Part shown: one piece after another, positions 4,390 through 30,181 of the stretch
Position numbering within the stretch: position 1 is the first letter of the stretch
Layout: each line of letters begins with the position of its first letter
Assembly: GCA_040753435.1 (NCBI GenBank)
Contig: JBFMEN010000062.1
Location: 6,726 to 70,725, forward strand
Direction of reading: 5' to 3'
Length of the DNA: 64,000 bases
Source of the DNA: Candidatus Omnitrophota bacterium
GTDB lineage: Bacteria > Omnitrophota > Gorgyraeia > Zapsychrales > JANLHA01
Made by a program: the position numbers and the translations under genes
The notes under the pieces: generated by a model
Database searches by the model: none
The model's input: the letters and a program-made list of their open reading frames with translations, nothing else
Told to the model about the DNA's origin: nothing

Positions 4390-6142
4390 AATAATTTTAA
4401 AAGGTATTCCCGCCGCACCAGGCATCACGATCGGTCCAGCCTATATATTGGATAAGCAGGAAATTATTGTCGCTCCGCGTGACATCGTTGAACAGGAGAT
4501 CCCTATTGAGATAGCGCGTTTCGAAGAGGCGCTGATCAAAACGCGCGAAGAAATCGCCGGGTTGAAACGCAAGATCACCGATGAAATGGGGGCCCAGCAC
4601 GCCCAGATCTTCGACGCCCATTTGCTCGCCCTTGAAGACCGCATGCTGATTGAGGACGTCATCAAGGGCATCCGCCAGCAAAAGCAGTCTGCGGAGTTCG
4701 TCTTTTCGCGTGTCCTGAAAAAATATATCAAAATATTTTCCGAGATGCAGGACGAGTATCTGCGCGACCGCATGGCGGACATCAACGATATCGGACGACG
4801 GGTTTTAAAAAACCTGATGGATGAAGACAAGCTCCACGAGCTCGACACCCTGACTGAGGATCTTATTATCATCGCCCATGACCTTTCTCCCTCTGACACG
4901 GTCTGCATGTTCAGGAAGAACATCCTGGCCTTTGCCACGGACGTGGGAAGCCGGACGTCTCATACCGCGATCATGGCCAAGTCGCTCGGGGTCCCTGCTG
5001 TCGTCGGATTGAAGGATGCCACATTGCGGATCACGAATCAGGACACCCTGATCGTCGACGGCAGGATGGGTCTGATTATCGTTCACCCTTCGGCCCGAAC
5101 CCTTGATATTTATAAACAGGAGCAGGAACGTCTGGTTTCGTTGCGCCACCGTTTTGACGATGTCCGCGAACTTCCGGCCCAGACTATTGACGGGCACCGG
5201 GTTGAAATCATTGCAAACCTCGAGGTCCCGGATGAGTTGAGTATCGTGAAACGGCAGGGCGCCGACGGTATCGGCTTGTACCGGACAGAATATTTTTATA
5301 TGAACAGGGCGGACTTGCCAACGGAAGATGAACAGCTCGAGGCTTACAGCCGTGTAGGGAGAGAGATGGGATCGAAACCGGTCACTATCCGCACCGTCGA
5401 TCTTGGAGGCGATAAATTTATTTCCAGTGTTCAGATCCCGCGGGACATGTATCCGTTTCTGGGATGGCGTGCCATTAAATTCTGCCTGGCCCGCCCCGAT
5501 ATTTTCAAGACCCAGCTGCGGGCGTTACTGCGCGCTTCGGTCAGCGAAAACATCCGTATCATGTATCCCATGGTTTCAGGCGTGGCCGAACTCCGTCAGG
5601 CCAACGCGGTCCTTGACGAGGCTAAAAAGGAACTGCGCGAGGAAGGGATTCCCTTTAACGAACAGATGCAAGTCGGAGTGATGATTGAACTGCCTTCGGC
5701 GGCGATAACCGCAGATTTGCTGGCAAAGGAAGCCGATTTCTTCAGCATCGGCACCAATGATTTGATTCAGTATACCCTGGCCGTAGATCGCGGCAACGAG
5801 CAGATGGCGGACTTCTATGAGCCGAGCCATCCGTCGGTTCTTCGTTTTATCAGAATTACGATTGAGGCCGCCCATCGGGCCAACATCCGTGTGGCTTTGT
5901 GCGGTGAAATGGCCAGCGAGCCTCATCTTGCCCTGTTGTTGCTGGGGCTCGGGCTGGATGAATTCAGCATGCCTCCGTTAAGCATGCTTCAGATCAAAAA
6001 ACTGATCTGTTCGATTAGACTGAGTGATGCCCGCGCTCTTGCGGAACAAGTCCTTGAGATGCAGACCGGGCATGAGATTGACGCGTTTTGCAAGAAGCGG
6101 GTAAAGGAAATGGCTCCCAATGTGTTTAAAATGGACGAGTGA
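4382..6142 (+). CDS. ptsI: Phosphoenolpyruvate-protein phosphotransferase (PTS enzyme I)
   Basis: 586 aa; N-terminal HPr-binding domain, phospho-His domain (GSRTSHTAIMAKSLGVPAVVG) and PEP-utilising C-terminal domain (NDLIQYTLAVDRGN). Confidence 0.9.
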   Translation: MNEIILKGIPAAPGITIGPAYILDKQEIIVAPRDIVEQEIPIEIARFEEALIKTREEIAGLKRKITDEMGAQHAQIFDAHLLALEDRMLIEDVIKGIRQQKQSAEFVFSRVLKKYIKIFSEMQDEYLRDRMADINDIGRRVLKNLMDEDKLHELDTLTEDLIIIAHDLSPSDTVCMFRKNILAFATDVGSRTSHTAIMAKSLGVPAVVGLKDATLRITNQDTLIVDGRMGLIIVHPSARTLDIYKQEQERLVSLRHRFDDVRELPAQTIDGHRVEIIANLEVPDELSIVKRQGADGIGLYRTEYFYMNRADLPTEDEQLEAYSRVGREMGSKPVTIRTVDLGGDKFISSVQIPRDMYPFLGWRAIKFCLARPDIFKTQLRALLRASVSENIRIMYPMVSGVAELRQANAVLDEAKKELREEGIPFNEQMQVGVMIELPSAAITADLLAKEADFFSIGTNDLIQYTLAVDRGNEQMADFYEPSHPSVLRFIRITIEAAHRANIRVALCGEMASEPHLALLLLGLGLDEFSMPPLSMLQIKKLICSIRLSDARALAEQVLEMQTGHEIDAFCKKRVKEMAPNVFKMDE

Positions 6143-6227
6143 TTTTGCGTATGCTGTGGCGGATGTGTAGCGTATTGTTTATGGCGTATGGCAGTTATAA
6201 GCAATAAGCGATAAAGTGGAGGATATG

Positions 6228-6962
6228 ATGAAGGTACTGATTTTGGCGGCGGGATACGGGACACGGCTTTATCCGATTGTCAAGAACACGCCAAAGCCCC
6301 TGCTTGATATAGGGGGGAAGTCTTTGATCGATCATCTTCTCGATAAAGTAAAGACGGCGGGCGGGCTTTCGGAAGTGATCGTGGTGACGAATGACAAATT
6401 CTATGGCTTGTTTCACCTTTGGGCTAAGAAAAAGGATTTTTGCGCGCCTGTCACCGTCATCAATGACGGGACATCTTCACCGGAAGACCGTCTCGGTTCG
6501 GTCGGTGATATTGAATTCGTTCTTAATAATTATGTGATCGATGATGACCTTCTCGTGCTCGGAGGGGACAATCTTTTTGATTACACCCTGGACGACTACG
6601 TAGCCTTTGCCAGGAAAAATAATCCGTCGGTAACGATCGGTTTGTATGATATCCATTCTCTGAAAGATGCCGCGCGATTCGGTGTGGTTGAAATTTACGA
6701 CAACGGGCGGATCAGGACTTTTGAGGAAAAGCCGATGAGACCAAAATCATCGCTGATCGCGATGTGCTCGTACTATTTTCCTCAAAGATCGCTGGATCTG
6801 ATTCATGAATACATGCGAACCAACCGGCATACGGACAAGGCCGGTGATTATATCCAGTGGCTTGTCGGGAAAGCCGATGTGTATGGATTTGAGTTTAAAG
6901 GGACATGGTACGATATTGGCAGTATCGAGTCTTTAAAGGAAGCCCGGTCGAAATTCAAGTGA
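6228..6962 (+). CDS. Sugar-phosphate nucleotidyltransferase (NTP_transferase family; exact substrate unknown)
   Basis: [35 protein letters not shown] is the G-x-G-T-R nucleotidyltransferase motif; start ambiguous (GTG 6216, ATG 6225/6228) next to GGAGGA at 6218-6223. Confidence 0.75.
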
Positions 6963-9767: not shown

Positions 9768-10457
9768 ATGAAAGTCTGCCTCCGTTGCGAAGAGTTCTTT
9801 CAGGAAGGGACGATGGCTTGCAGCCGCTGCAACGGGCAGCTTGAAGAAATTTCGTTTGTCCAGGCGCTGCAGTTAACCCGTAAACGTTCCCTCGAGAAAC
9901 AAATCTCCAGCCAGGCGACAAGACCAGACGCTTATAAAGAATATTTGATCCGTCGTTATCTCGGCGATGATTCATTGTTTTTACTCTACGATATTGCCAG
10001 GAACCGCCTGAAACACGGCAGGGATCCAAAGCGTTTCTTTATTCAGCCGATCAACTTTACCGCCTTCTTTAACATCCCGTGGTTTCTTTTTAATGTTCTC
10101 AGCACCAATTCTTTTCATATGAGCCACACAGGTTTCTGCGAAAGATGCAGCTGTAAATTTATCCCCGGGCGCCATTCCCGGGAAGAATGCGACTACAATA
10201 CAGAGTATTTCAGCATTATTGACGATGTTATGACGGGAAACATTGTTAACACCCGTTTTATTTATAAACAATACGGGAGTGAAAATAAAAAGCAGGGTAA
10301 GCGCAGCGCCTATTATGACCTTTTTGAACGGAGGGTGAAGGTTGAAGCCTTTTTTGATTTGTTATCCATCGGGCTGTCATTAATGTTTTGGGTGTTCATC
10401 GTGATTTATATTACGTTTCCGTTCATTAAAGCGTTTTTTCAGGACATCTACGGTTAA
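9768..10457 (+). CDS. Hypothetical protein with N-terminal zinc-ribbon (CxxC..CxxC), second Cys cluster and C-terminal TM helix
   Basis: 229-aa ORF; MKVCLRCEEFF..CSRCNG and CERCSCKF...EECDY cysteine clusters; hydrophobic C-terminus; no recognised family. Confidence 0.5.
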   Translation: MKVCLRCEEFFQEGTMACSRCNGQLEEISFVQALQLTRKRSLEKQISSQATRPDAYKEYLIRRYLGDDSLFLLYDIARNRLKHGRDPKRFFIQPINFTAFFNIPWFLFNVLSTNSFHMSHTGFCERCSCKFIPGRHSREECDYNTEYFSIIDDVMTGNIVNTRFIYKQYGSENKKQGKRSAYYDLFERRVKVEAFFDLLSIGLSLMFWVFIVIYITFPFIKAFFQDIYG

Positions 10458-10470
10458 GGAGAGCGACGTT

Positions 10471-10662
10471 ATGGATGAACAGCGCCTTAAACAATTGGCC
10501 CTGGTCAGGGGGATTTGCGTGGGTTGGCTTGTGCTGATCACCGGATGCGCGATCCTCGGCCTTGCAACCGCGAATCTTTTCTGGCGGGATGCGGCCATTT
10601 TTCTTGCTGTCGTCGGTCTGACAGGCCTGACCTTTTCTCTTCAAAAGATAATTCAAAAATAA
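10471..10662 (+). CDS. Small two-TM membrane protein (hypothetical)
   Basis: 63-aa ORF directly after previous gene; two hydrophobic helices; could be spurious. Confidence 0.35.
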   Translation: MDEQRLKQLALVRGICVGWLVLITGCAILGLATANLFWRDAAIFLAVVGLTGLTFSLQKIIQK

Positions 10663-10729
10663 TGCAGAGAGAACCGTGATCGTCTCTGCCGAAACTCCCC
10701 CGGCTGGTTCCTGTCGTCACCCTGCAAAA

Positions 10730-11653
10730 TTAATGATTGATTTTTTCTGAAATCCAGTAAAGCGGGCGCTGTTTGACTTCTTTAAAGACAGTCATCAGAT
10801 ATTCGCCGAGAACGCCGATGAAGATCAACTGAAGCCCGCCGATAAAAAAGACGCCGACCAGGATGGAAGGGATGCCGGCCGGGGCTCCGTGGGCCAATTT
10901 ATCATAAATGATATAGAGAGCATACAGGACGCTTAAGGCGGCAATGAAAAATCCGAACGTTGAGCATGCGCGCAGCGGAACACTCGAGAACGAAAGCGTT
11001 CCGGTGATCGCCAGCTTAATCATTTTAATGAGACTGTATTTGGAAATCCCATTCCGGCGGGGATTTTCGCGGTACAAGATCCTGGCTTGATTAAAGCCAA
11101 TGTCCGAGACCATCCCCCGCAAAAACCGGTCGCGTTCGCGGTACTGACGCAGGCACTCAACGACCTTGCGGCTCAGCAGCCTGAAATCCGCCGCGCTGTT
11201 TACGAGATCGAGATGCGAGACGGCTCGGAGAAAACGGTAAAATAACCGGGAGGTGAGGTTTTTAAACCAGGGCATGTCCTTTTGTCTGTCCCTGACCGCG
11301 AACACGATGTCCGCGCCTTTTTCCCACGCATCCAGCATCGCCGGGATACTTTCCGGAGGATGCTGAAGATCGCTGTCCATTGTAATCACGGCCCGGCCTT
11401 CGGCATGATCAAGGCCTGCGGTCAGCGCGATCTGGTGCCCGAAATTTTTTGGAAAAAAGATCGCCTTCGCGTTTGTATGATTTTGACAAATTTCACGTAT
11501 TTTTTCCCGCGAGGAATCCGTCGACCCGTCATCGATAAACCACATTTCCCAGGTATATTTCTCCGGTATGGCGCGCCGTACCGATTCGTACAAGTCGTGA
11601 AGGTTGCCTTCTTCATTATGAACGGGGGTGACGATGGACAGATCAATTGGCAT
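10730..11653 (-). CDS. Polyprenol-phosphate glycosyltransferase, GT2 family (ArnC/GtrB/DPM1-like) with two C-terminal TM helices
   Basis: From ATG at 11653 (AGGAGG RBS upstream on - strand): MPIDLSIVTPVHNEEGNL...WFIDDGSTDSS...ITMDSDLQHPP, the GT2 DxD/DXSxD architecture, plus C-terminal hydrophobic pair as in GtrB/ArnC; the longer annotated ORF to 11797 overlaps the upstream gene and is rejected. Confidence 0.8.
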   Translation of the reverse strand: MPIDLSIVTPVHNEEGNLHDLYESVRRAIPEKYTWEMWFIDDGSTDSSREKIREICQNHTNAKAIFFPKNFGHQIALTAGLDHAEGRAVITMDSDLQHPPESIPAMLDAWEKGADIVFAVRDRQKDMPWFKNLTSRLFYRFLRAVSHLDLVNSAADFRLLSRKVVECLRQYRERDRFLRGMVSDIGFNQARILYRENPRRNGISKYSLIKMIKLAITGTLSFSSVPLRACSTFGFFIAALSVLYALYIIYDKLAHGAPAGIPSILVGVFFIGGLQLIFIGVLGEYLMTVFKEVKQRPLYWISEKINH

Positions 11654-13142
11654 AACGGATCCTCCTGAACATGACCCAGTGGTTGCTGACAAACATCGGG
11701 GACCACATCCCGCCCAGTAGTTCAAGATTCTGGTCGCCGCTGTAAGGGTTGTAAAGATAATAAAGCGTTCCCGGATCGACGATAATCTCCCTGACATTTG
11801 AAGTAAAAATAAAGTCGGGAAAGGTCTTCCCGTAATTCATGTTCGTCAGGCGCGGAATCGCGTAGCCCGGCTCAAAGGCGTTCGTCCGCACGGTTGCGCC
11901 ATTATCAATGACTTCATGTTTAAATACCGCGTTTTTAGCCATCCAGCGCTGTAGATTCATTGTGTCGTACTGGTAAGTTTCATGGTAATTCACCGCGCTT
12001 CCGCCGATAACAGTATTCAGCAGAAGGCCGGTGATTGCAAGAATAATGAAAAGTGAAACAGGAATGGTTTTTAACCGCGGGGCAAGAATCAGCGTGATGA
12101 TCAACGCGAAGAAAAGCGCGAGCGGGGTCACGTAGTGCCCCCATGAATTCCACGGCAGGATAATTATCGCGTAACCGAAATACGCAAAAAACGCCAGGAG
12201 CCGGCCGAACAATAATCCCGGATGGGAGGGCTGCTTTGCCGAGAAAGGGAACGCGATCAGCGTCAGCGCAATCCAGGGAGAATGATTTACCAAAACTTTA
12301 TTCAGCCACACCCGGAGATTAAAATTGATCCTCGCGAAATCAGTCAGTCTGTAATCTCCCGAGTAGGTGAGATCTTTTGAGATGCCGAATTTCATAATAA
12401 GAGCGTAAACAAGCGAAAGCGCAAGGATCAAGGTTCCGAGCAGGAAGACGTTTTTAAACTTTTTGAAACCTGCCAGCGCGGCAAAAACGATCATACTGGC
12501 GCCCAGGGCGATTCCGGCGGCAACAAAGGTTTCTTTGGACAGGAACGAGAGCAGCAGGAAGGCGGACGCACAAATGATTGTCGATGTTTTCAGACCTGTG
12601 CGGGATGTCTCAAACACCGGCGCTAGTGATCGATAGAACAGCAGGAATGCCAGGCCCGAGAACAGTGAGCCAAGGATTTCTACTGTCGACAAGAAAAAAA
12701 ACGCGTCATAGAATTTATAAAAGGAAAGGGCAATCGCGATAAAAAAAGGAGCGGCATATTTTTGCCGTGAAATAACGGCCGCCAGACAGCCCCAGACGCC
12801 CAGTGTCAGTATGACTTCAAACCAGCGGAAAATCAGAAAGGCCTTGGGGCTGCTGTGAAATAACGTGTAGAAAACGGCTGCGTGCGCGTTGTAAACAGGG
12901 AAAAAACGTCCTGTCTTAAGCAGGCCCTGGATTCCGTTGACCATTTGCTGCCAGATGGTTTCGGTGGACATGATGAAGGCGTGGTCATCCATGAGTCCCC
13001 AGGCCCAAACCTTGCTGATTAATGAAGAAAGGACCAGGAACAAGGGGACGAGAGCGGGGAGCCACCAGATATTCGCGAGGGAAATATCAGGCTGTTCTTG
13101 ACGACTTTTGCCTGAGAACCAGTGTTTGATGATATTGCTCAT
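11643..13142 (-). CDS. Polytopic membrane protein, putative GT-C-fold glycosyltransferase (ArnT/PMT-like)
   Basis: 499 aa, >10 predicted TM helices, acidic motif (GLMDDHAF) in first loop as in GT-C enzymes; stop overlaps start of the GT2 gene by 11 nt (translational coupling), mirroring ArnT/ArnC or GtrC/GtrB pairing. Family assignment is by architecture only. Confidence 0.65.
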   Translation of the reverse strand: MSNIIKHWFSGKSRQEQPDISLANIWWLPALVPLFLVLSSLISKVWAWGLMDDHAFIMSTETIWQQMVNGIQGLLKTGRFFPVYNAHAAVFYTLFHSSPKAFLIFRWFEVILTLGVWGCLAAVISRQKYAAPFFIAIALSFYKFYDAFFFLSTVEILGSLFSGLAFLLFYRSLAPVFETSRTGLKTSTIICASAFLLLSFLSKETFVAAGIALGASMIVFAALAGFKKFKNVFLLGTLILALSLVYALIMKFGISKDLTYSGDYRLTDFARINFNLRVWLNKVLVNHSPWIALTLIAFPFSAKQPSHPGLLFGRLLAFFAYFGYAIIILPWNSWGHYVTPLALFFALIITLILAPRLKTIPVSLFIILAITGLLLNTVIGGSAVNYHETYQYDTMNLQRWMAKNAVFKHEVIDNGATVRTNAFEPGYAIPRLTNMNYGKTFPDFIFTSNVREIIVDPGTLYYLYNPYSGDQNLELLGGMWSPMFVSNHWVMFRRIRYAN

Positions 13143-13312
13143 GGAATGTTTTTATTATAAATAAATTTATTTTGAGGGCAAGAGAAATAGTGCTTTCGAA
13201 TGTCAGGGCAAAAATACCCCCGACATTTCTTTAATAAAAAAACTTTTATATAACCTGTTTTTTCTATACAATATCACATATTCCATTAACAGCCGCAACC
13301 ATATTTATAAAG

Positions 13313-15337
13313 ATGAAAATCAAGAATGTTCTTATTTCGTTCCTGGGATTATCGCTGATCGGGGCGCTGGCCTACCGGGTGAATATGCACGCCGGTTTCG
13401 TTTTTGACGACTATAAAGTGATCATCTTAAACCCGGCGATCAGGCACTTGACCGATATTGTTTCCATTTGGAAACATGACCCCACGCGTTTCCTGCCCGC
13501 TCTGACCTTCGCCCTGAATTACCGGATTGCGGGGTTTGAGGTGTTTTCCTATCATCTTTTTAATTTGATTCTTCACGTTCTGGGAGGATTTTGCGTCTAT
13601 TGGCTGGTCGTCTTGCTGATGAAGGCCCCGGCCCTTAAACTGGAGGACCGTGAAGACAGCCAAATCTGGCCTTTCCTGGCCGCATTGATTTTTATTATCC
13701 ATCCGGTTCAGACCAGCACGGTTTCTTATATCGTGCAGCGTTCGACGATCATGGCGGGCATTTTTTATCTTCTGGCCATGATCGGTTATTTGAAATGGAG
13801 ACTTTATCCGGGAAGATTATCATTTTATTCTGGATTTGCCGCGGCCCTTGCCAGTTCCTTTTGCAAGCCGTCGGTAATTACGTTGCCGCTGGCGCTTGTT
13901 CTGCTCGAAGTTTTCTTTTTGAAAGGTGTGGAAAAAAAACGAAAGACCGGTTGGGGAATCGCTGCATTTCTGGCAGCCGTCATGATCGTGCCCGGGCTGC
14001 TGGCTTTGTTAAAAGAGATCAGTCCTTCGATCGGGACCTTTGTATCTATCACCCGTCAGACGCCTTTTGTTTCCCGCTGGGGATACCTGACCACGCAATT
14101 CAACGTCCTGGTTTATTACATCGGCCTGTTGTTTTTTCCGATCAGCCAAAATCTGGATTATGGATTTCCGTTTACCAAAGGGCTTCTGGCCTGGCCGACC
14201 TTTTTTTCTTTCGCGGTCTTGTGGTATCTCCTTTACATGGCATACCGTTGTCGCCGGGGAAGGATGTTCAGTTTTGTCGTTCTGTGGTTTTTCGTGACAC
14301 TGCTGCCGGAATCAAGTATTTTCCCGCTTGAGGACGCGCTGTTCGAACACCGCCTGTATCTGCCCCTGGCCGGTTTCGCGCTTGCATTGTCTTATGCCGT
14401 TGTTTTTAAAATTTCATGGAAACCTGCGAGGCTCAGCGCTTCTATGGCGTTGACGTTATTCCTGGCGTTTCTGACAGTCAGCAGGAATACTGTATGGTCT
14501 GATCCCGAGGCCCTGATGAAGGATAATATTGCCAAGTCGCCGCATCATTTGCGCCCCCGGTTTAATTTGAGCAGCCATTACATTAGGGAAGGGAATTTAG
14601 ACAAAGCCCGGAAGGTTATTGAAGAGGCCGCGGCCATCGCTCCGTGGCATCCGGACAATTATTTTAAGATTGCTTATATTTACGAGCTGCAGGGGCAGTC
14701 TGAATTGGCCATGATTTATTACCGGAAAGCGATTGATCTGGATCCTGAGCATGCCAGGGGGGAGTATTATTTAAGGCTGGCTCAGTTTAATATCGGCCGG
14801 CAACGCTGGGACAAGGCCGAGCCGCTTCTGGAGGAAGCGCTTAAACGCAGCCCCAAATCAGACGTGATTCACACGGAGATGGGCAATATCAATAATCTGC
14901 AGGGTGACAGCAAAAGGGCCTTTGAACATTACCAGGAGGCCGTCGAGCTAAACCCCTACAATGAAAACGCGCTGAACGGGTTGGCCACAATTTACGTACT
15001 CAGGGGCGATTATGATCAAGGGGTCGAAATTTATGAACGATTGATCCGGCTGGCGCCTGGGATGGAACTGGCGTATGTTAATCTGGCCAAGGTGTATTTT
15101 TTGAAAAAGGATTGGGAAAAATCAAAAGAGATATTTAACAAGGCGCTTAAGATCGGAGTTGATGATCCCGAGATCCTTGTACGTCTTGCCCAGATTAATA
15201 TCAATCTCAAGAATTATTTTGAAGCCCAGGACCAGATGGCCACGGCGATCAGGACATACCGGAAGCGCGGTCTCAATGAGGTCGCGGACCAGCTTCAGCA
15301 GCAGTATTTTGCAAAGGGACTTCCGCCGGAGAGCTAA
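13313..15337 (+). CDS. TMTC-like protein: N-terminal multi-TM (DUF1736-like) domain fused to C-terminal TPR repeats
   Basis: 674 aa; ~11 TM helices with early FVFDDY motif, then >=6 TPR-like repeats (..YFKIAYIYELQGQSELAMIYYRKAIDLDP.. etc.); architecture of TMTC/PMT-2-type protein O-mannosyltransferase homologues. Confidence 0.7.
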   Translation: MKIKNVLISFLGLSLIGALAYRVNMHAGFVFDDYKVIILNPAIRHLTDIVSIWKHDPTRFLPALTFALNYRIAGFEVFSYHLFNLILHVLGGFCVYWLVVLLMKAPALKLEDREDSQIWPFLAALIFIIHPVQTSTVSYIVQRSTIMAGIFYLLAMIGYLKWRLYPGRLSFYSGFAAALASSFCKPSVITLPLALVLLEVFFLKGVEKKRKTGWGIAAFLAAVMIVPGLLALLKEISPSIGTFVSITRQTPFVSRWGYLTTQFNVLVYYIGLLFFPISQNLDYGFPFTKGLLAWPTFFSFAVLWYLLYMAYRCRRGRMFSFVVLWFFVTLLPESSIFPLEDALFEHRLYLPLAGFALALSYAVVFKISWKPARLSASMALTLFLAFLTVSRNTVWSDPEALMKDNIAKSPHHLRPRFNLSSHYIREGNLDKARKVIEEAAAIAPWHPDNYFKIAYIYELQGQSELAMIYYRKAIDLDPEHARGEYYLRLAQFNIGRQRWDKAEPLLEEALKRSPKSDVIHTEMGNINNLQGDSKRAFEHYQEAVELNPYNENALNGLATIYVLRGDYDQGVEIYERLIRLAPGMELAYVNLAKVYFLKKDWEKSKEIFNKALKIGVDDPEILVRLAQININLKNYFEAQDQMATAIRTYRKRGLNEVADQLQQQYFAKGLPPES

Positions 15338-15355
15338 TAACTGGCAGCGTGCATC

Positions 15356-16003
15356 TCATCCGCCCAGCGTCACATCCTGCGTGTTATACCATTCCAATGC
15401 CTTAAAAAAGTGGTCCGGTTTGAAATCCGGCCAGTAATCATCGATGACGTAAATGTCCGAGTAAACCGTTTGAACCGGAAGGAATCCGCTCAAACGCCGT
15501 CGTCCTCCCCAGCGTATGATGAGCTCAATGCGCGAAATGTCCGCCGAATTTAAATGTTTGCCGATATTGCGGCTGGTAATTTTGCGCTCCGGCTTGTTAA
15601 GGTTTGCCAGGTCCCATTGCCAGCCGTAGTTCACAAGGAAGTTCACCTTGATCCCGCCATTACCGAAATGGATTCTTTTCGTGAAAGGAAGAAGCTGCCT
15701 GGGAAATTTCGGGGAACTGGTGTCTCCGATGACCAGGAGCGAGGCGTTATCGTGTGACAACAGTTCAACGGCCTTGACGCAGGCTTTTGTAAAGGCCGTT
15801 GTCTGCTCCGAAGAGCGTTTTGTGTTGTCAACGGTGAACCCGTAAAAGGTCATTTCCCTGATGCCGGTTTCCTTGCATAATTTGAAGAGCTGAAGGCCGG
15901 GCATGAGACCGTTTTCGTAGCCGTCTTCTTTCGGGGATCCGCGCCGCTCTGCCCAGCGCCGGTTTCCGTCAGGGATAATGCCTATGTGCCCGGGAATTCT
16001 CAT
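15356..16003 (-). CDS. uppS: Isoprenyl transferase (cis-prenyltransferase, undecaprenyl-diphosphate synthase family)
   Basis: HIGIIPDGNRRWA motif and ...FLPVQTVYSDIYVIDDYWPDF.. C-terminal block typical of UPP synthase family; 215 aa (short). Confidence 0.8.
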   Translation of the reverse strand: MRIPGHIGIIPDGNRRWAERRGSPKEDGYENGLMPGLQLFKLCKETGIREMTFYGFTVDNTKRSSEQTTAFTKACVKAVELLSHDNASLLVIGDTSSPKFPRQLLPFTKRIHFGNGGIKVNFLVNYGWQWDLANLNKPERKITSRNIGKHLNSADISRIELIIRWGGRRRLSGFLPVQTVYSDIYVIDDYWPDFKPDHFFKALEWYNTQDVTLGG

Positions 16004-16122: not shown

Positions 16123-18276
16123 TTAACCCTGCGGTTCCGGCAGTCCGCCCGGCTGGTTAAATAACATAAGATGCACTGCGTAGTTCATGGCCCCGTCTTG
16201 ATGCACGTTCTGATTTATAGAGACCAAATCTTTGATTGAAAAAAATCCGTGCGTGCGGTTAAGGGTGATGAGAGGCGTTCCTTTTCCGGAAATGATGACG
16301 CGGTTTCCTTTCAGCGCGATTTCGGGCTTTTCATTATAAAGAAGAACCGGACACAGGTCTTCGACAGCGGGAAGCCAGGTTTTCCCGTCGGAATAGTCCA
16401 CTGGAACAACGTGGCGCAGGCGCGGGTTTAAGGGGTTCAGAATCATCTTGAGCCCGGGGCTGATGATGATTTCATTATCCTTTCCGTTGTCGAAAAAACT
16501 TTCCGCGTGGAGGATCAGAAAGTAATTAAACGCCGGCATGGCCATGGGCAGAATAAATCCTGAAGCGATCGAAACCGCCGAGCCGATTATGAGCAGCATG
16601 GCCATCAGCATTTCGATGTTCAGGGTTGCAATCCCGAAGCCAAGCAGGAAACCTGCGGTACTAACGACAAAGGTGAAAAAATCACTGACCCCTTCCACAA
16701 GGTTGCTGTACCGCGAAAGACCGGTTTTGACAGCCTGTTCGCCGGTGATGACCTCGGCCGTCGCCAGTTCCTTCCAGTAAAGTTCCCCGTAAATGGAAAC
16801 CGCGTTGTCCATGAGCCACCATAACAGGAAGAAAATAAGGTACTGCATCGGCGTCAAACGGGGAAAAAATCTCAGCAGGGGAAGATGAAGAAACGTTTTT
16901 TCCGGGATCAGCAGGACAAAAAGAAAAACCATGATAATGTTGAGGACCGCGAAGTACCGGAAAAACCGGATGAGATTATTGTTGGCATCGTAATTCTGGA
17001 GGCGTTTTTGCCACAGGCTTCCGGAATCCTTTTGGCTGATCCGGGTATCCGCCCGCCGGTAAAAAACGACATCACGGTTCACTTCTTCCGCGATCTTCAG
17101 CCGGATGAGAGGAAGGACGTAGCGCTCCAGGACATAGGTGATGAAATAAAAAATACTGATGACAACGAAACCGGCGATCGTGATCTGCCCGGCGTAGGCG
17201 ACGATCGCGACAAAGAACACGCCCAGCAGCATCTGGCTGAAATAGGCGTAGAATAGCCAGAAACCTTCGCCGGTGCGGTAGAGAGGGCTGAAGTTAAGCG
17301 CGCGGAACCAGTACTTCACCCCGGAAGTGATGCTCAGGCGTTCCGTGACATACAAGGCGTAATAAGGCCCCTGGAAGGACAGCCCGGAATCGCCAAGCGT
17401 GCGGATCTTTCTCCAGACCCCGGCTTTTTTCAAGTCTGATTTAAATTGTGAACGCTCTTCCGAGGTTATGTGTTCCTGATTAAAGCTCGGAAGGGAAAGG
17501 CCGGTTTTGTAGGAAAGGGTCGTGTGGAACTGGTCCTGATAATGTTTGCCGGAAGAGTCCTTGGTGAAGATAAAAACAATCCTTTCCACCTCCAGGCCGA
17601 ATTCTTTGAAGACTTTGTAATAAATGAAACGCTCCGGCAGCCGCAGGGAAGGGCTCGTGGGATGTTTGATAAGGATCACGTATAATGTGTCACCCAATTT
17701 CAGCAGTTCCGCCATGGCATCGGCCTTGGGCCGTCCGTTTTTTAAACTGAATGAATGGAACAGGTAGAGAGGGGAAGAGTACTCCCCCTTGTCGTGTTCG
17801 GAAATATAGGCCTGCAAGACAGGGTTGATATCGATGATTTTTGAAATATCTTCGTGCTGGGAATCTGCCGGCCGGACGCGGGTAAAATGGCTGTATTCGC
17901 GTTGAAGTTTCTTGGAAAAATCAGGTATGGCCAGGTTTTTAAAGCCGTCGGTTTTGCGGCTTTGGCGCCATTTCAGAATAACGGCGAGAATGACCGCCGT
18001 GAGAGCCAGACCGGCGATGATGGAGGCAATCCCGCCGAGTTTGAGGAAATCCTGGCTGTTTTCAGAGGAAATAATGTTAAGAAGGCTTGAATTGCCGGAA
18101 AAAAAGGAAAAGAAATTTTCGATGATATTGTCGAACATAAATGTTTTCTTGCCCGCTAAAAAGTGTTTTCCGCTTTCGGGGAGGCCTATTATAACAGAAA
18201 AACCGGCCGGGGGAAACAAAGCCAGGCGAAAGCGCCGCGTGTTTTTGTCCGGAAAAATGCGGATCAGACCTGACAT
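16123..18276 (-). CDS. Large polytopic membrane protein, function unknown
   Basis: 717-aa ORF (alternative start ATG 18138 gives 671 aa); one N-terminal TM, ~230-aa loop, ~8 TM helices, ~110-aa C-terminal soluble domain; no family recognised. Confidence 0.6.
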   Translation of the reverse strand: MSGLIRIFPDKNTRRFRLALFPPAGFSVIIGLPESGKHFLAGKKTFMFDNIIENFFSFFSGNSSLLNIISSENSQDFLKLGGIASIIAGLALTAVILAVILKWRQSRKTDGFKNLAIPDFSKKLQREYSHFTRVRPADSQHEDISKIIDINPVLQAYISEHDKGEYSSPLYLFHSFSLKNGRPKADAMAELLKLGDTLYVILIKHPTSPSLRLPERFIYYKVFKEFGLEVERIVFIFTKDSSGKHYQDQFHTTLSYKTGLSLPSFNQEHITSEERSQFKSDLKKAGVWRKIRTLGDSGLSFQGPYYALYVTERLSITSGVKYWFRALNFSPLYRTGEGFWLFYAYFSQMLLGVFFVAIVAYAGQITIAGFVVISIFYFITYVLERYVLPLIRLKIAEEVNRDVVFYRRADTRISQKDSGSLWQKRLQNYDANNNLIRFFRYFAVLNIIMVFLFVLLIPEKTFLHLPLLRFFPRLTPMQYLIFFLLWWLMDNAVSIYGELYWKELATAEVITGEQAVKTGLSRYSNLVEGVSDFFTFVVSTAGFLLGFGIATLNIEMLMAMLLIIGSAVSIASGFILPMAMPAFNYFLILHAESFFDNGKDNEIIISPGLKMILNPLNPRLRHVVPVDYSDGKTWLPAVEDLCPVLLYNEKPEIALKGNRVIISGKGTPLITLNRTHGFFSIKDLVSINQNVHQDGAMNYAVHLMLFNQPGGLPEPQG

Positions 18277-20060: not shown

Positions 20061-23000
20061 TTACTGATTTAATAAAACCGGCAGGTCGTAAACAGGCTGG
20101 ATTTGAATGATGACCGGGGTCAGCCCCTGGATGGGCAATTCGGGATTAACGCGAAGTTCATCCGGAATGTTTAACCGGATGCCTTGCCCCCGGCGACCGA
20201 GTTTGAGCCGGGAGGGATTAAGATCAATACCGCCCGGCGGTTGATCTGCTCCTGTCCTGGCGGAATCAACGGATTGTTTGATCTGCTTGATTTTTTTTGT
20301 CAGTAATTCATCATGTCCTCCGAACATCGCATATTGCAAAGCGCGCAGCAAGTAGTGCGGATGATAAGCATCTTTTCCTCCGGAAAATGTTTTTCCTTTT
20401 AATGCGATGGATCTCGCCTTTCCCTGCAAATGCAGCCGCGCCGTCTTTCCGTCAGCCGTTATGACAAGCCATTCTCCGTCGAACGACAATTTCAGAATCT
20501 CGCCCTGGACATAGTATTCGCCCAGCTCATGAAATATGGAAATGCTGTTATCGGATAAATCCCGGGCCAGAGCGATCAGCTTTTTTTCAAAAGAAGCGAT
20601 GCCGAGGAAATCCGCAACCGGATCGGTAAACAGCCTGAGCTCCGGCGGTGAATTTTCCAGTAATCGCAGGAATGCGTCGATGATCTGCTGATTATGCGGG
20701 TTGACACTCTCATTTTTTAATCCGGTTAAAGCAGTCTCAAGATGCCCGCGGCCGTTCTCGACCGTTATCAGATCCCGCACGCCGAGCAAATGGTTTTCCC
20801 TGTCGTAAAGATGGAGTTCATCTTCCCCGCCATCATCATTGCTGACAATTTCTCCGTGAGCGTTTTTGCCGATCAAACCGGCGAGGACGGGAATCGTTTC
20901 ATTAAGAAAAGGTTCTGTGACCCGATCCTCCTTCTGCCCAAATGAGAAATACCGGACGCTTCCGTCACCGTTATGGTTAACACCCAAAAGCGCCCGTAAT
21001 TGCCGCTGTTGTTCGGGCGTTAACGTTATAAAGATCGTAAGGTCTTCCCTGAAGGCGATCTTTTCAATTGTTTCCGCCCGGACGATGTGTTTGCCTTTGA
21101 GCTCGCTGTCTTCTCCGGTCGCTTCCTTAATCCCTTTCAGCATTGTCGATCTGGGATCTTCTTCGGATTCGGAAAAACCCGTGGCTTGCGTTCCGCGATT
21201 TGCTGCGGTCACGATGCTGAAGGAATCTGTGATCGTTATTGACGCCTTTTGAAGGAGGTTCAGGACCCGGGTAGCATAATCCCCGCAGTAGCAGGAGTCG
21301 ATCATAATAACGAGGTCCGAAAGAACGCCTCCGGAACCAGAGGCCCGTTCGATGAGATCATCTGCGAGTTCCTTGTAGCTGATTCCGTCGGGATGCGAGA
21401 GGTTCTCTGATTTTTCTTTGCCTTCCTGCCCGCCGCGCAGCCAGAAATGATTTGGACCGCCGTGGCCGTTAAGGTAAATAAAGGTCTTTCCTGGAGAAGT
21501 CCGGATCTCTTTTCTCAGCGCGTCCTTTCCGTAATAAGCCAAACCGTCGTAGGCCTTGACGCGCTTATCGAAAGAGTCTTCGCCGGGTCTGGCGCCGATG
21601 AACTGGCTGATGAAATTTTTAATATATTCTGTTGAAAAGATAAGGCTGTCGTCATTGGTGCCGATAATAACGGAGTAGCCCCGATCAAGAAGTGTTTTTT
21701 CAAGAAAGTCTTCGCGGATTTTGAGGATGAACGGGATGAGCGCGGAGATCTTTTCATCATCCAGGCCCAGGCCGTGTGTTTTTAAAACAGTGTCAACCGC
21801 GCGCGCGACGGAGAATTGGTTCACGGAATGAAGGTCTTTTGTCATTTTACTGAATTCTTTATTTGAGTAGATCAGCAGATAATCTTGCAGCGAAATGACC
21901 CCCTTGCCCAGTTCAGCCCAGCGATAGGAGAGATTAAGAAAAAGCCTTTTTTGCGGATGTTCATTCGATAAATTGAACCCGACGGCCCATATCGCCCATG
22001 TTGCGATGCCCTTGTCCTCCTCATAAAGTTTGAGGATCGCAGGAAGGAGGTGATTTTTTAAGATACCTTCCGGATCTGCCCCGATGCTTTGACTGACTGT
22101 TCCGATCGCGTCCACTGCCTGGTTGAAGACTTCGTCATTCTCATCTTTTAATCCGTAATTGAAGATGACAGGAATAATTTCATTTTTAAGGAGCGGGAGG
22201 TCGGTCAATCCCATCTTGGCCAGCGAAGAGATGGCCCAGTCGGCGGATATGCCGTCTTTGTTCCTGATTCCGTTCAGAATTGAGTTGATGATCGCAAGTC
22301 TTGCCGGAGATTCTTCAGGAACTTCTTCCCGGATGTTTTCCAGAACCATGGCGGCATGAAGCCGGAACCATTCGGAAAAGAAAAGGGAGTGGACCAGGGT
22401 GGGAATAATCTTTTCTTCAAGAACCGGATCATCTTTCAGCTGCAGGGCAGCATTTTTCAGCAGGGCAAATGACCTGATTCCAAGGTTCTCATCCAGCAGA
22501 AAAGGCAGGAGATGTTTTTTGGTGAATTCTGGTTCCTGAAGATCAATGATGGCCTGGCCGGCGCCCTTAATAATGATACCGGCGGAGATTTCTCTCCTTG
22601 CGATCAAATCCAGTACCGGTTGAATGACGCGGGTTTTGACGAAATGTTTCTTGCCGGCGGTATCCGCGTCTCCGTCCATTTTTGCGATGATGGTGAAGAT
22701 AGTGTTTTCTATTGCCTGGTCCGGATTCCTGTCCTTCAGCCTGGAGATCAGGAAATCAACTGCTTCCGGTCCCATCGCCGTCAGTTCCTTCCACTGCCGG
22801 CCGGCATAATAAAAAATTTTCTTGTCTTCCGGCAGTAGAGGCTCCCAGCCGATTTTTTTCAACACATCAGCGCCGTGCAGGCGGACCGACGGTTCGGGAT
22901 TGGTCAGATTGCCCCGGAATTTATTAATAATCATATCTTTGACGGGATTCGGCTGTGAAAATGATCGCGCAACCAGGATCAGTTCCCCGGACACGTCGCC

Positions 23001-25124: not shown

Positions 25125-25389
25125 TCTCTTCTCAGGTAAAAAAGGTAATATAAGGAATTTAAAGCTAAGCATAGAACATTTTTGAGCAAAAAACCAGTGC
25201 TTCCCCGGGTTATTTTATTCAAAAGTGGACACTTTTTGACGAATTCCGGCCGGATATTCTTCCGATATTTCAGGACCTGCCGTGCTTGCAGATTAACTTG
25301 TCCCTGTTCGTTGACATCCCGGTCTGATCGGCTATAATTTCATGGGATGAGACAAACGATGGATTGATTCATAACGATGGAGGTGTGTG

Positions 25390-29849: not shown

Positions 29850-30181
29850 TTTGTCTCCTGGTTGATAAAACTGCTTCCTTTGAATGACGGATTCTCTGAA
29901 TCTGAAGTTTCCAAAAACTGGAGCGATTAATTTAAGAATTAGAGAAAAGTGGATTAACTTTATCATATAAAATTATACAAAACAATGGGACAAGCCTGGA
30001 TAAACCAGGACACGAAAGCAGAAACCACCACTATTTTAAAAAAATTTTTAAAAAAGGAGAAAAATGTCAGTAAATATTCCCTCCGCCTATGGTTTTTAAT
30101 AGTAATTTGTAGTTCAATATAGATAATTCACATAAATCAACAATTGCAACCGGTTAAGGCCGGAACAGAGGGGATAGTTCA

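Follow-up and report, generated by a model that had tools for sequence, protein, structure and literature searches.

Whether four closely spaced genes in an Omnitrophota metagenome-assembled genome form a single lipid-linked glycosylation module is the question raised by this locus, which lies in a window of 64,000 nucleotides (the whole stretch of DNA analysed). The first-pass annotation had grouped a GT2 glycosyltransferase, a GT-C-type membrane protein, a TMTC-like protein and a cis-prenyltransferase in this way. The positions of the four ORFs were confirmed, as were the overlap of 11 nt, the divergent gap of 170 bp and the convergent gene order, and a fifth gene lies next to them:

10730-11653, minus strand: GtrB-type GT2 gene, 307 aa
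11643-13142, minus strand: 499-aa GT-C-fold membrane protein gene
13313-15337, plus strand: 674-aa TMTC-like gene
15356-16003, minus strand: 215-aa cis-prenyltransferase gene
16123-18276, minus strand: 717-aa multi-TM orphan gene, 5' of the cis-prenyltransferase gene

The evidence favors a unit of two genes that resembles Gtr systems and includes a new GT-C member, located beside unrelated genes, and not a four-gene module.

The intergenic and overlapping regions include the following features:

11643-11666, minus strand: translational-coupling junction, read from sequence
13143-13312: divergent intergenic region, 170 bp
13181-13154, minus strand: sigma-70-like site, TTGCCC-16-TATAAT (consensus scan, weak)
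13245-13272, plus strand: sigma-70-like site, TTTATA-16-TACAAT (consensus scan, weak)

The GT-C and GT2 genes overlap by 11 nt (ATGCCAATTGA, 11643-11653), with the TGA of the 499-aa gene at 11645-11643. The GT2 reading frame is open to 11797, and homology begins at the ATG at 11653. A perfect AGGAGG (11666-11661) sits within the 3' end of the 499-aa gene, followed by a 7-nt spacer and this ATG (11653-11651), which supports ATG 11653 as the start codon as well as translational coupling of the two genes. Operon genes often share short overlaps, and the 11-nt overlap is by itself unremarkable; evidence beyond chance comes from the recurrence of GT-C/GT2 adjacency in other genomes (see below). The pair is flanked by gaps of 272 bp and 170 bp, the latter with the two sigma-70-like sites placed back to back, and no ORF that fits a GtrA-type small flippase is present between or beside the two genes. 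The stop codons of the TMTC-like and cis-prenyltransferase genes converge and are 18 bp apart.

The product of 10730-11653 is, as judged by homology, a full-length GtrB-type polyprenyl-phosphate glycosyltransferase. Its GT-A domain is detected by Pfam PF00535 (2e-36, residues 6-168), the translation contains a DXD motif (D93-S-D95, within MDSDLQH), and hydropathy indicates two C-terminal TM helices at about residues 225-243 and 253-271. Residues 3-303 align with residues 26-328 of Synechocystis GtrB (PDB 5ekp; 9.2e-73, 248 bits), and ArnC is also matched in the PDB search (1.6e-39, 139 bits). The best NCBIfam match is PgfS (1.9e-71, 240.8 bits), followed at some distance by ArnC (1.1e-45, 156 bits), both over the full length. 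These matches bear out the earlier description of the protein as GtrB/ArnC-like, but the NCBIfam scores lie below the equivalog cut-offs (500 bits for PgfS and 529 bits for ArnC), and therefore no sugar specificity is assigned.

Sequence searches against Pfam, NCBIfam and the PDB gave no match for the 499-aa protein. About 11 TM helices are predicted from the secondary structure of its model (DSSP) and from hydropathy, with the K/R-rich N-terminus inside (topology inferred), and several features can be placed on this topology:

11646-11930, minus strand: predicted periplasmic alpha/beta C-terminal domain, residues ~405-499
12984-12989, minus strand: codons of D52-D53 in the motif WxWGLMDD, first extracytoplasmic loop, a putative catalytic acidic pair
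12531-12536, minus strand: codons of K203-E204, predicted periplasmic end of TM5

A GT-C fold is assigned on the basis of a confident AlphaFold2 model (pLDDT 91.3, pTM 0.90), whose top Foldseek matches are ArnT, DPY19, STT3, AftA, PglB, ALG3 and AftB. ArnT is the best of these (5f15, E 1.2e-5, TM 0.47; 5ezm, 6.3e-5). Nine different solved GT-C enzymes are matched at a probability of ~1, with TM-scores <0.5, and every match at that probability is a GT-C enzyme, whereas MFS and other transporters reach TM-scores of only ~0.1-0.16 and probabilities <0.3.

The protein belongs to a small, unannotated GT-C-fold family (89 cluster representatives) in which a DD and a KE motif are invariant. D52-D53, directly after TM1, and K203-E204 are preserved in 32/32 family members, the DD motif extends to remote relatives, and conserved positions are concentrated on the side predicted to face the periplasm. 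None of the Pfam GT-C families (PMT_2/GT83, PMT/GT39, YfhO, STT3, DUF1736 etc.) matches any of the 32 members at E<=1, and sub-threshold PMT_2 matches are found in only two remote relatives. There is, however, a transitive profile link, from the 499-aa protein to its remote relatives (E 4.5e-46) and from those to bacterial TMTC-like proteins (92% probability, E 6e-7). In hhalign, K203-E204 falls on the K185 position of the TMTC-like protein, within the KE(T/Q)xxT motif, at low probability. Together, the modelled fold and the profile link sustain the original classification as a GT-C-type membrane protein.

A comparison of related loci supports the proposed pairing of donor synthase and transferase. 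Members of the 499-aa family adjoin a polyprenyl-phosphate-sugar synthase gene in 12 of 18 loci (the window included), and in 10 of 16 genome loci a GT2 of ~260 aa is encoded immediately downstream, often overlapping. Among solved structures, this shorter GT2 comes closest to Pyrococcus Dol-P-Man synthase (1.4e-16), ArnC and GtrB, and in most relatives the partner is TM-less and DPMS-like, not GtrB. In the locus most closely related to the pair (L008), a GtrB-type orthologue (70% identity) is found one gene away from the GT-C gene. The pairing is considered conserved because of the 12 loci and because the GT-C family is accompanied by synthases of two types that are not orthologous. Gene clusters of the relatives also contain GT4, Wzy_C, SAM-methyltransferase, sugar epimerase/dehydratase and MBOAT genes.

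The divergently transcribed 674-aa protein consists of two parts:

13313-14524, plus strand: membrane GT-C domain, residues 1-~404 (hhalign)
14525-15337, plus strand: C-terminal TPR array (Pfam)

Its sequence identifies it as a true homologue of eukaryotic TMTC1-4, protein O-mannosyltransferases of the GT-C/PMT clan (PMC7801869), with which it shares the order of an N-terminal membrane domain and a C-terminal TPR array. When it was aligned by hhalign with animal TMTC1-4, using sequences from the supplement of PMC7801869, a probability of 99.95% was obtained (E 1.7e-38, 367 columns). The TPR array (residues ~410-650) is matched by Pfam TPR_2 (1.1e-32) and >20 other TPR models; because the corresponding domain of TMTC proteins is lumenal, a periplasmic location is predicted for the array. 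The TMTC architecture noted at first pass, with FVFDDY (residues 29-34) and a TPR array, is thereby upheld.

Conservation over 120 homologues highlights DD32-33, R59, HP130-131/T134, QR142-143, K185(P186)...T190, D282-Y283 and E345-H-R347-L-Y349. The catalytic and ligand motifs described for TMTC proteins are M1 DD, M2 SHKSYRP, M4 KE(T/Q)xxT, M5 DW and M7 ERxxY (PMC7801869). M1 is present (DD32-33), only R59 and F..LN remain of M2, M4 keeps K185 and T190, M5 has DY for DW, and in M7 the arginine is shifted by one position; the elements in common with TMTC1-4 are DD, R..(S/T)F.LN, HPxxT, K....T, D-aromatic and E.R.Y. The modelled metal-binding glutamate of M4 is a proline (P186) in this protein; among the homologues, the position is glutamate in 86/120 and proline in 22/120. 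No Pfam model matches the membrane domain; DUF1736, which covers the TM7-TM8 loop, matches neither the 674-aa protein at E<=10 nor any of 26 homologues at E<=1, although hhalign nonetheless aligns this region with TMTC. The family assignment by HMM suggested for the two membrane proteins gave no annotated family for the 499-aa protein and TMTC, without DUF1736, for the 674-aa protein. Bacterial TMTC-like proteins are abundant (at least 689 matches), and no functional study of them was found in the literature searched. Relatives of the 674-aa protein are stand-alone genes. It presumably represents an independent periplasmic glycosyltransferase acting on proteins and, unlike its eukaryotic counterparts, would work in the bacterial periplasm with an undecaprenyl-type donor.

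The convergent 215-aa protein was initially labelled a UPP synthase. The cis-prenyltransferase fold and motifs are clear (Pfam Prenyltransf PF01255, 5.5e-44), but the match to TIGR00055 is marginal (111.2 bits, cut-off 109.55), and E. coli UppS is only distantly similar (5.6e-27, 98 bits). Much closer are PDB 7vq9 (9.4e-87, 294 bits) and MM_0014 of Methanosarcina mazei (7caq; 3.3e-83, 282 bits), with 59% identity to the latter over 210 residues. The C-terminus reads QDVTLGG, a TLGG ending shared by 78/80 metagenome relatives, and lacks RXG, the C-terminal motif of homodimeric long-chain cis-prenyltransferases (PMC8131916). By sequence, this is an enzyme of the type of MM_0014 and M. acetivorans MA1831, of the same length class and with TLGG in place of RXG, although encoded by a bacterium (an Omnitrophota MAG); it is not a canonical UppS. 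Of the original label, the cis-prenyltransferase part stands, and "UPP synthase" is likely an annotation error, corrected here. MM_0014-type enzymes are widespread and highly conserved in metagenomes. The neighboring 717-aa protein has no Pfam or NCBIfam match and a single homologue among 5.8 billion proteins, and its gene is conserved beside the cis-prenyltransferase gene only in the closest syntenic relative (L002).

That relative bears directly on the four-gene reading, in which a carrier produced by the cis-prenyltransferase is loaded by the GT2 and then serves as donor for both GT-C enzymes, for instance in a two-step protein O-glycosylation. The genes are tightly packed, with the promoter-like sites back to back in the 170-bp gap and little space between the convergent stops; as GT-C enzymes, the two membrane proteins each require a polyprenyl-phosphate sugar; and the TMTC-like, cis-prenyltransferase and 717-aa genes are syntenic in one relative. 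In L002, however, ahcY, ORF229, the TMTC-like gene, the cis-prenyltransferase gene and the 717-aa gene (MP717) are collinear with the window at 66-78% nucleotide identity, and the GT2/GT-C pair is missing, with other genes in its place and no counterpart for positions 10443-13381 of the window. L008 keeps the pair and has no TMTC-like or cis-prenyltransferase gene within 6 kb downstream (the upstream side is a contig end). TMTC-like loci in five other genomes contain no GT2 or cis-prenyltransferase gene within 5 kb, and in 79 of 80 related cis-prenyltransferase loci all of the other genes are absent within 7 kb; in only one of the 80 does a TMTC-like gene adjoin. The four-gene arrangement is thus not conserved in relatives, and the TMTC-like and cis-prenyltransferase genes are not supported as conserved partners of the pair. 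The supply of the polyprenyl carrier by this cis-prenyltransferase also finds no support, since the products of MM_0014, the prototype, are C25-40 and irregular compounds, and no role in the synthesis of carrier lipids is attributed to this enzyme (PMC8131916). A single module of all four genes, as initially proposed, is accordingly unlikely.

What remains is the translationally coupled pair (11643-13142 and 10730-11653), which probably represents a Gtr/Arn/Pgf-like functional unit that glycosylates a periplasmic acceptor. Given its full-length homology, the GtrB-type GT2 would act at the cytoplasmic side of the membrane and move a sugar from a nucleotide sugar onto polyprenyl (undecaprenyl) phosphate. 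A flippase, for which the locus has no GtrA-like gene, would turn the lipid-linked sugar to the periplasmic side, where the 499-aa enzyme would take it as the donor and glycosylate the acceptor, using an active site that may be built from the invariant DD of the first external loop, the KE pair and other conserved residues, all predicted to be on the periplasmic face. As judged from the GT4, Wzy_C and other genes in the clusters of relatives, the acceptor would most likely be a surface polysaccharide or an LPS-type glycan that receives side-chain decoration.

Gtr serotype conversion uses a GtrA flippase, a GtrB Und-P-glucose synthase and a GtrC GT-C enzyme. The pair resembles this system in the full-length alignment of the GT2 with GtrB (5EKP), including the two C-terminal TM helices, in the direct coupling of the synthase gene to a GT-C-fold transferase gene and in the O-antigen-like clusters of its relatives. 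It differs in the lack of a gtrA-like gene at this locus, in gene order (GT-C, then GT2), in the lack of sequence similarity of the 499-aa family to annotated GtrC, YfhO or PMT_2 families, and in the TM-less synthases of most relatives. In the streptococcal GtrB/PgtC2 and PgfS/PgfM1 protein O-glycosylation systems, a GtrB-type synthase likewise serves a GT-C enzyme with an extracytoplasmic acidic motif, and PgtC2 and PgfM1 are YfhO-family GT-Cs (PMC12041528). PgfS is the best family match of the GT2, albeit below its cut-off; the 499-aa protein has no YfhO match, and no Ser/Thr-rich acceptor genes were identified here.

ArnC and ArnT are the Und-P-L-Ara4FN synthase and the GT83 lipid A transferase, respectively, and follow the same donor-synthase/GT-C logic. 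A comparable modification of lipid A or LPS core, with a glycolipid and not a polysaccharide or protein as the acceptor, would agree with ArnT as the best structural match and with the strong full-length ArnC match. However, the GT2 is much nearer to GtrB and PgfS (248 and 241 bits) than to ArnC (139-156 bits), the TM-score to ArnT is 0.47, no family member matches PMT_2, no other arn genes (arnA/B/D/E/F) are found in the window or related loci, and the latter resemble Wzy-type polysaccharide clusters; this alternative is improbable. Even less credence is given to the 499-aa protein as a transporter, flippase or polymerase of similar multi-helix architecture, with the adjacent GT2 feeding lipid-linked sugar export. 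Such a role would fit with the missing sequence-family assignment, the TM-scores below 0.5 and a locus without the flippase that some protein must provide, but it conflicts with the exclusively GT-C Foldseek matches at a probability of ~1, with the link to TMTC-like GT-Cs, with the periplasmic clustering of conserved residues and with the invariant DD and KE, which match GT-C catalytic motifs (PMC7801869).

That a polyprenyl-phosphate-sugar synthase and a GT-C enzyme combine for periplasmic glycosylation is well known (from Gtr, Arn, Pgf and mycobacterial Ppm/Pmt), and these findings overturn nothing in current understanding. The locus does add a GT-C family missed by current HMM libraries, and, given its clear DD and KE catalytic-motif candidates and conserved synthase partner, this family could be adopted by Pfam or CAZy and is directly testable. 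The locus also supplies a bacterial TMTC homologue. A bolder and rather doubtful proposal is that the "WGLMDD/KE" family is a distinct, undescribed CAZy-level GT-C family of Omnitrophota, Planctomycetota and Anaerolineae, always accompanied by a dedicated polyprenyl-phosphate-sugar synthase, which here might join the TMTC homologue in a two-enzyme, GtrB-fed periplasmic protein O-glycosylation. If true, eukaryotic O-mannosylation by TMTC proteins would have a prokaryotic counterpart in this pathway, and perhaps an ancestor.

The first-pass annotation described a four-gene lipid-linked glycosylation module, and all four open reading frames, as read from the sequence, occupy the positions it gave:

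10730-11653, minus strand: GT2 glycosyltransferase
11643-13142, minus strand: 499-aa membrane protein
13313-15337, plus strand: 674-aa TMTC-like protein
15356-16003, minus strand: 215-aa cis-prenyltransferase

The reported 11-nt overlap between the 499-aa gene and the GT2 gene is exact (ATGCCAATTGA), as is the 170-bp spacing between the divergent 499-aa and 674-aa genes. The convergent stop codons of the 674-aa and cis-prenyltransferase genes lie 18 bp apart. The GT2 frame is open to 11797, but homology starts only at the ATG at 11653, which follows an AGGAGG and a 7-nt spacer within the final codons of the upstream gene. A 355-aa GT2 ORF starting at 11797 was rejected as a real gene, since homology begins at M49 and the Shine-Dalgarno sequence precedes that ATG. 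Scanning the locus for promoters and terminators gave weak consensus matches only. The surrounding genes are housekeeping in character (ptsI-like, CofD, NTP-transferase, metK, ahcY and LemA).

The GT2 protein matches the Pfam GT2 family (2e-36), and its top NCBIfam models are PgfS (1.9e-71) and ArnC (1.1e-45), both matched over the full length and both far under their equivalog cut-offs. The nearest solved structure is Synechocystis GtrB (5ekp, 9.2e-73, residues 3-303), followed by ArnC (1.6e-39). Because of the full-length GtrB, ArnC and PgfS matches, together with a DSD motif and two C-terminal TM helices, the protein is classified as a predicted GtrB-type polyprenyl-phosphate glycosyltransferase, in keeping with its earlier GtrB/ArnC-like label. 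An NTP_transferase of the sugar-1-phosphate nucleotidylyltransferase type (6216-6962, plus strand; Pfam 5.9e-42) is encoded 3.7 kb from the GT2 gene, upstream of metK and ahcY, and could make a nucleotide-sugar donor.

The 499-aa protein has no match in Pfam, NCBIfam or PDB sequences, and neither 32 members of its family nor their alignment (A3) yielded anything usable in Pfam, NCBIfam or PDB sequence and profile searches. A word-indexed search with the protein found one homologue; exhaustive searching with HMMER turned up 89 cluster representatives, of which 45 scored below 1e-30. Sixteen residues are invariant in A3: D52, D53, Y92, F95, Y145, K203, E204, Y260, W279, H287, W290, Y321, P330, W331, F345 and E424. 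An AlphaFold model built from only two sequences was discarded (pLDDT 40), and that built with A3 reached a pLDDT of 91.3 and a pTM of 0.90. When the latter was compared with the PDB by Foldseek, all matches with a probability of about 1 were GT-C enzymes: ArnT (two entries, 1.2e-5 and 6.3e-5, TM 0.47-0.48), DPY19, STT3 (three entries), AftA, PglB, ALG3 and AftB. Transporters gave a TM of about 0.12 and probabilities below 0.3.

Profile comparisons link the family to TMTC proteins transitively. Using hhalign, A3 matches a set of remote relatives with a common WGLMDD motif (E 4.5e-46), and these relatives in turn match the profile of the bacterial TMTC-like proteins (92% probability, E 6e-7) and the animal TMTCs (77%, 2e-5); direct comparison of the 499-aa family with TMTC-like and TMTC profiles is insignificant (probability 1-10%), the signal appearing only via the remote relatives. 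Two of the latter also have sub-threshold PMT_2 matches. Assignment by HMM, proposed as a check at first pass, thus finds no Pfam or NCBIfam family for the 499-aa protein, whereas the model and Foldseek place it among GT-C enzymes. The original GT-C reading is borne out by these matches and by the transitive link to the TMTC-like profile, and we assign the protein a GT-C fold, in a family currently without annotation. DSSP assignments from the model, combined with hydropathy, point to a cytoplasmic N-terminus and 11 TM helices, a topology under which the invariant residues and the C-terminal alpha/beta domain would all be periplasmic.

Members of the 499-aa family were examined in sixteen genome loci, mostly from Omnitrophota, with two from Planctomycetes, one from Anaerolineaceae and one labelled Elulimicrobium. 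In ten loci, a 253-268-aa GT2 gene directly follows the GT-C gene, often overlapping it. The GT2 proteins of these ten loci share at least 53% identity and lack C-terminal TM helices; among solved structures they come closest to Pyrococcus dolichol-P-mannose synthase (1.4e-16, covering the whole catalytic domain), ArnC and GtrB, and among NCBIfam models to ArnC, PgfS, PpgS, AglJ and Dol-P-hexose transferase. The nearest relative of the 499-aa protein (49% identity), in locus L008, has a GtrB-type orthologue 70% identical to the window GT2, with one methyltransferase gene separating the two. An adjacent synthase is absent in six loci (L001, L004-L007 and L016). Counting the window, the GT-C family and a polyprenyl-P-sugar synthase occur together in 12 of 18 loci, and the synthase/transferase pairing proposed at first pass is therefore conserved. 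As the family pairs with two non-orthologous synthase types, there is good evidence for functional coupling of transferase and synthase. In the Anaerolineaceae bacterium BD1 locus (L010, 3458-7441), a full-length homologue of the 499-aa protein is followed by two partial copies (5203-5697 and 5591-6664) that may represent a second, frameshifted paralogue, and then by a 255-aa GT2 resembling dolichol-P-mannose synthase.

Genes for GT4, Wzy_C, SAM-methyltransferase, epimerase/dehydratase and MBOAT proteins adjoin the 499-aa relatives, which points to the pair decorating a surface polysaccharide, as judged from these distant relatives. Methyltransf_23 SAM-dependent methyltransferase genes adjoin the family in L008 (1525-2352), L013 (4994-5932), L019 (5033-5980) and L018 (8189-9586), the last fused to a GT2. 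Their recurrence hints that the transferred sugar or acceptor glycan may be methylated.

The pairing does not extend to a conserved four-gene module. In the closest syntenic relative, L002, five genes keep the order seen in the window, with nucleotide identities of 66-78%: ahcY, a 229-aa protein gene, the TMTC-like gene (protein 63% identical to the 674-aa protein), the cis-prenyltransferase and a 717-aa protein gene. Window positions 10443-13381, which include the GT2/GT-C pair, have no counterpart there; the same slot (L002 1453-2831) encodes a 65-aa ORF, a cupin and a PCMT-type methyltransferase. The slot between the 229-aa and TMTC-like genes thus carries different cargo in the two contigs. 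L008 keeps the pair, and neither a TMTC-like nor a cis-prenyltransferase gene was found in the 6 kb downstream, the upstream side ending at the contig end. In five other TMTC-like loci, neither a GT2 nor a cis-prenyltransferase lies within 5 kb, and among the 80 best cis-prenyltransferase loci in metagenomes, TMTC-like or 717-aa neighbours are found in the L002 contig only. Within the window, the TMTC-like and 499-aa families are each represented by a single gene. The 229-aa protein (9768-10457, plus strand) has N-terminal CxxC...CxxC (zinc-ribbon-like) motifs, one C-terminal TM helix and no Pfam match; homologues occupy the corresponding place in L002, and one immediately follows a 243-aa GT2 in L003. 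Two very large minus-strand ORFs, at 20061-25172 (1703 aa) and 27324-29966 (880 aa), lack Pfam matches at E<=1e-5.

The 674-aa protein has a TPR array as its C-terminal half. Its N-terminal 400 residues have no Pfam match, DUF1736 included, and no PDB sequence match, and searching the PDB with a profile of the TMTC-like membrane domain gave 0 matches; this region has at least 689 homologues, some named 'protein O-mannosyl-transferase' by JGI. Eight TMTC1-4 membrane-domain sequences were rebuilt from the supplementary alignment of PMC7801869, and hhalign matches them to the bacterial family with a probability of 99.95% (E 1.7e-38, 367 columns). TMTC motifs include M1 (DD), M4 (KE(T/Q)xxT, with a modelled metal-binding Glu), M5 (DW) and M7 (ERxxY) (PMC7801869). 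The 674-aa protein has M1, and of M2 only R59 and F..LN; in M4, K185 and T190 are present with the Glu replaced by Pro (residue 186), M5 reads DY rather than DW, and M7 reads EHRLY rather than ERxxY. At the position following the conserved Lys, 86 of 120 homologues have E, 22 have P and 10 have Q. The 674-aa protein and its nearest relatives form a KP subgroup, reminiscent of the KPP motif of ArnT/PMT_2 proteins. Given the hhalign match, along with the TPR array, the TMTC-like label is right at the level of homology; the DUF1736 model proposed as a check gives no match. One Omnitrophota contig, L003 (8001-16547), has three TMTC-like/TPR paralogues inside 9 kb, and the gene order Hpt, TMTC-like, 336-aa, DUF1318 is common to L003 and L100.

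The cis-prenyltransferase matches Pfam Prenyltransf (5.5e-44) and barely reaches the TIGR00055 cut-off (111 bits against 109.55). Among solved structures it comes closest to 7vq9 (9.4e-87) and to MM_0014 of Methanosarcina mazei (7caq, 3.3e-83), and E. coli UppS reaches only 5.6e-27. At 59% identity, it is closely related to the archaeal MM_0014/MA1831 'versatile' cis-prenyltransferase and has the same TLGG C-terminus, shared by 78 of 80 metagenome relatives, and no RXG motif. MM_0014 makes C25-40 and irregular (geranyllavandulyl) products, and the M. mazei carrier lipid is attributed to other paralogues (PMC8131916). The original designation of the window gene as a UPP synthase supplying the glycosyl carrier is not justified, because the encoded enzyme is of the MM_0014 type, whose prototype is not tied to the M. 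mazei carrier lipid. Proteins with 65-75% identity to the window enzyme are encoded at more than 400 metagenome loci, in varying gene neighbourhoods; apart from the order shared with L002, a search for a conserved neighbourhood found none. Directly upstream of the cis-prenyltransferase lies the gene for the 717-aa multi-TM protein (16123-18276, minus strand; 671 aa per NCBI), which has no Pfam or NCBIfam match and a single homologue among 5.8 billion proteins, which is 64% identical and sits at the corresponding place in L002; with a single relative, no family-level inference is drawn.

The supported unit is the two-gene GT2/GT-C pair. In the proposed mechanism, the GT2 would load a sugar onto polyprenyl phosphate in the cytoplasm, the lipid-linked sugar would be flipped across the membrane, and the GT-C enzyme would transfer the sugar in the periplasm. 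The pair would work like the Gtr and Arn systems and the streptococcal GtrB/PgtC2 and PgfS/PgfM1 systems (PMC12041528). It differs from these in having no GtrA gene, in a GT-C family unrecognised by current HMM libraries, and in that most members of this family have a TM-less synthase resembling dolichol-P-mannose synthase rather than a GtrB-type one. Such a pair would be no surprise to a specialist; its value lies in annotation and in offering a candidate that can be tested.
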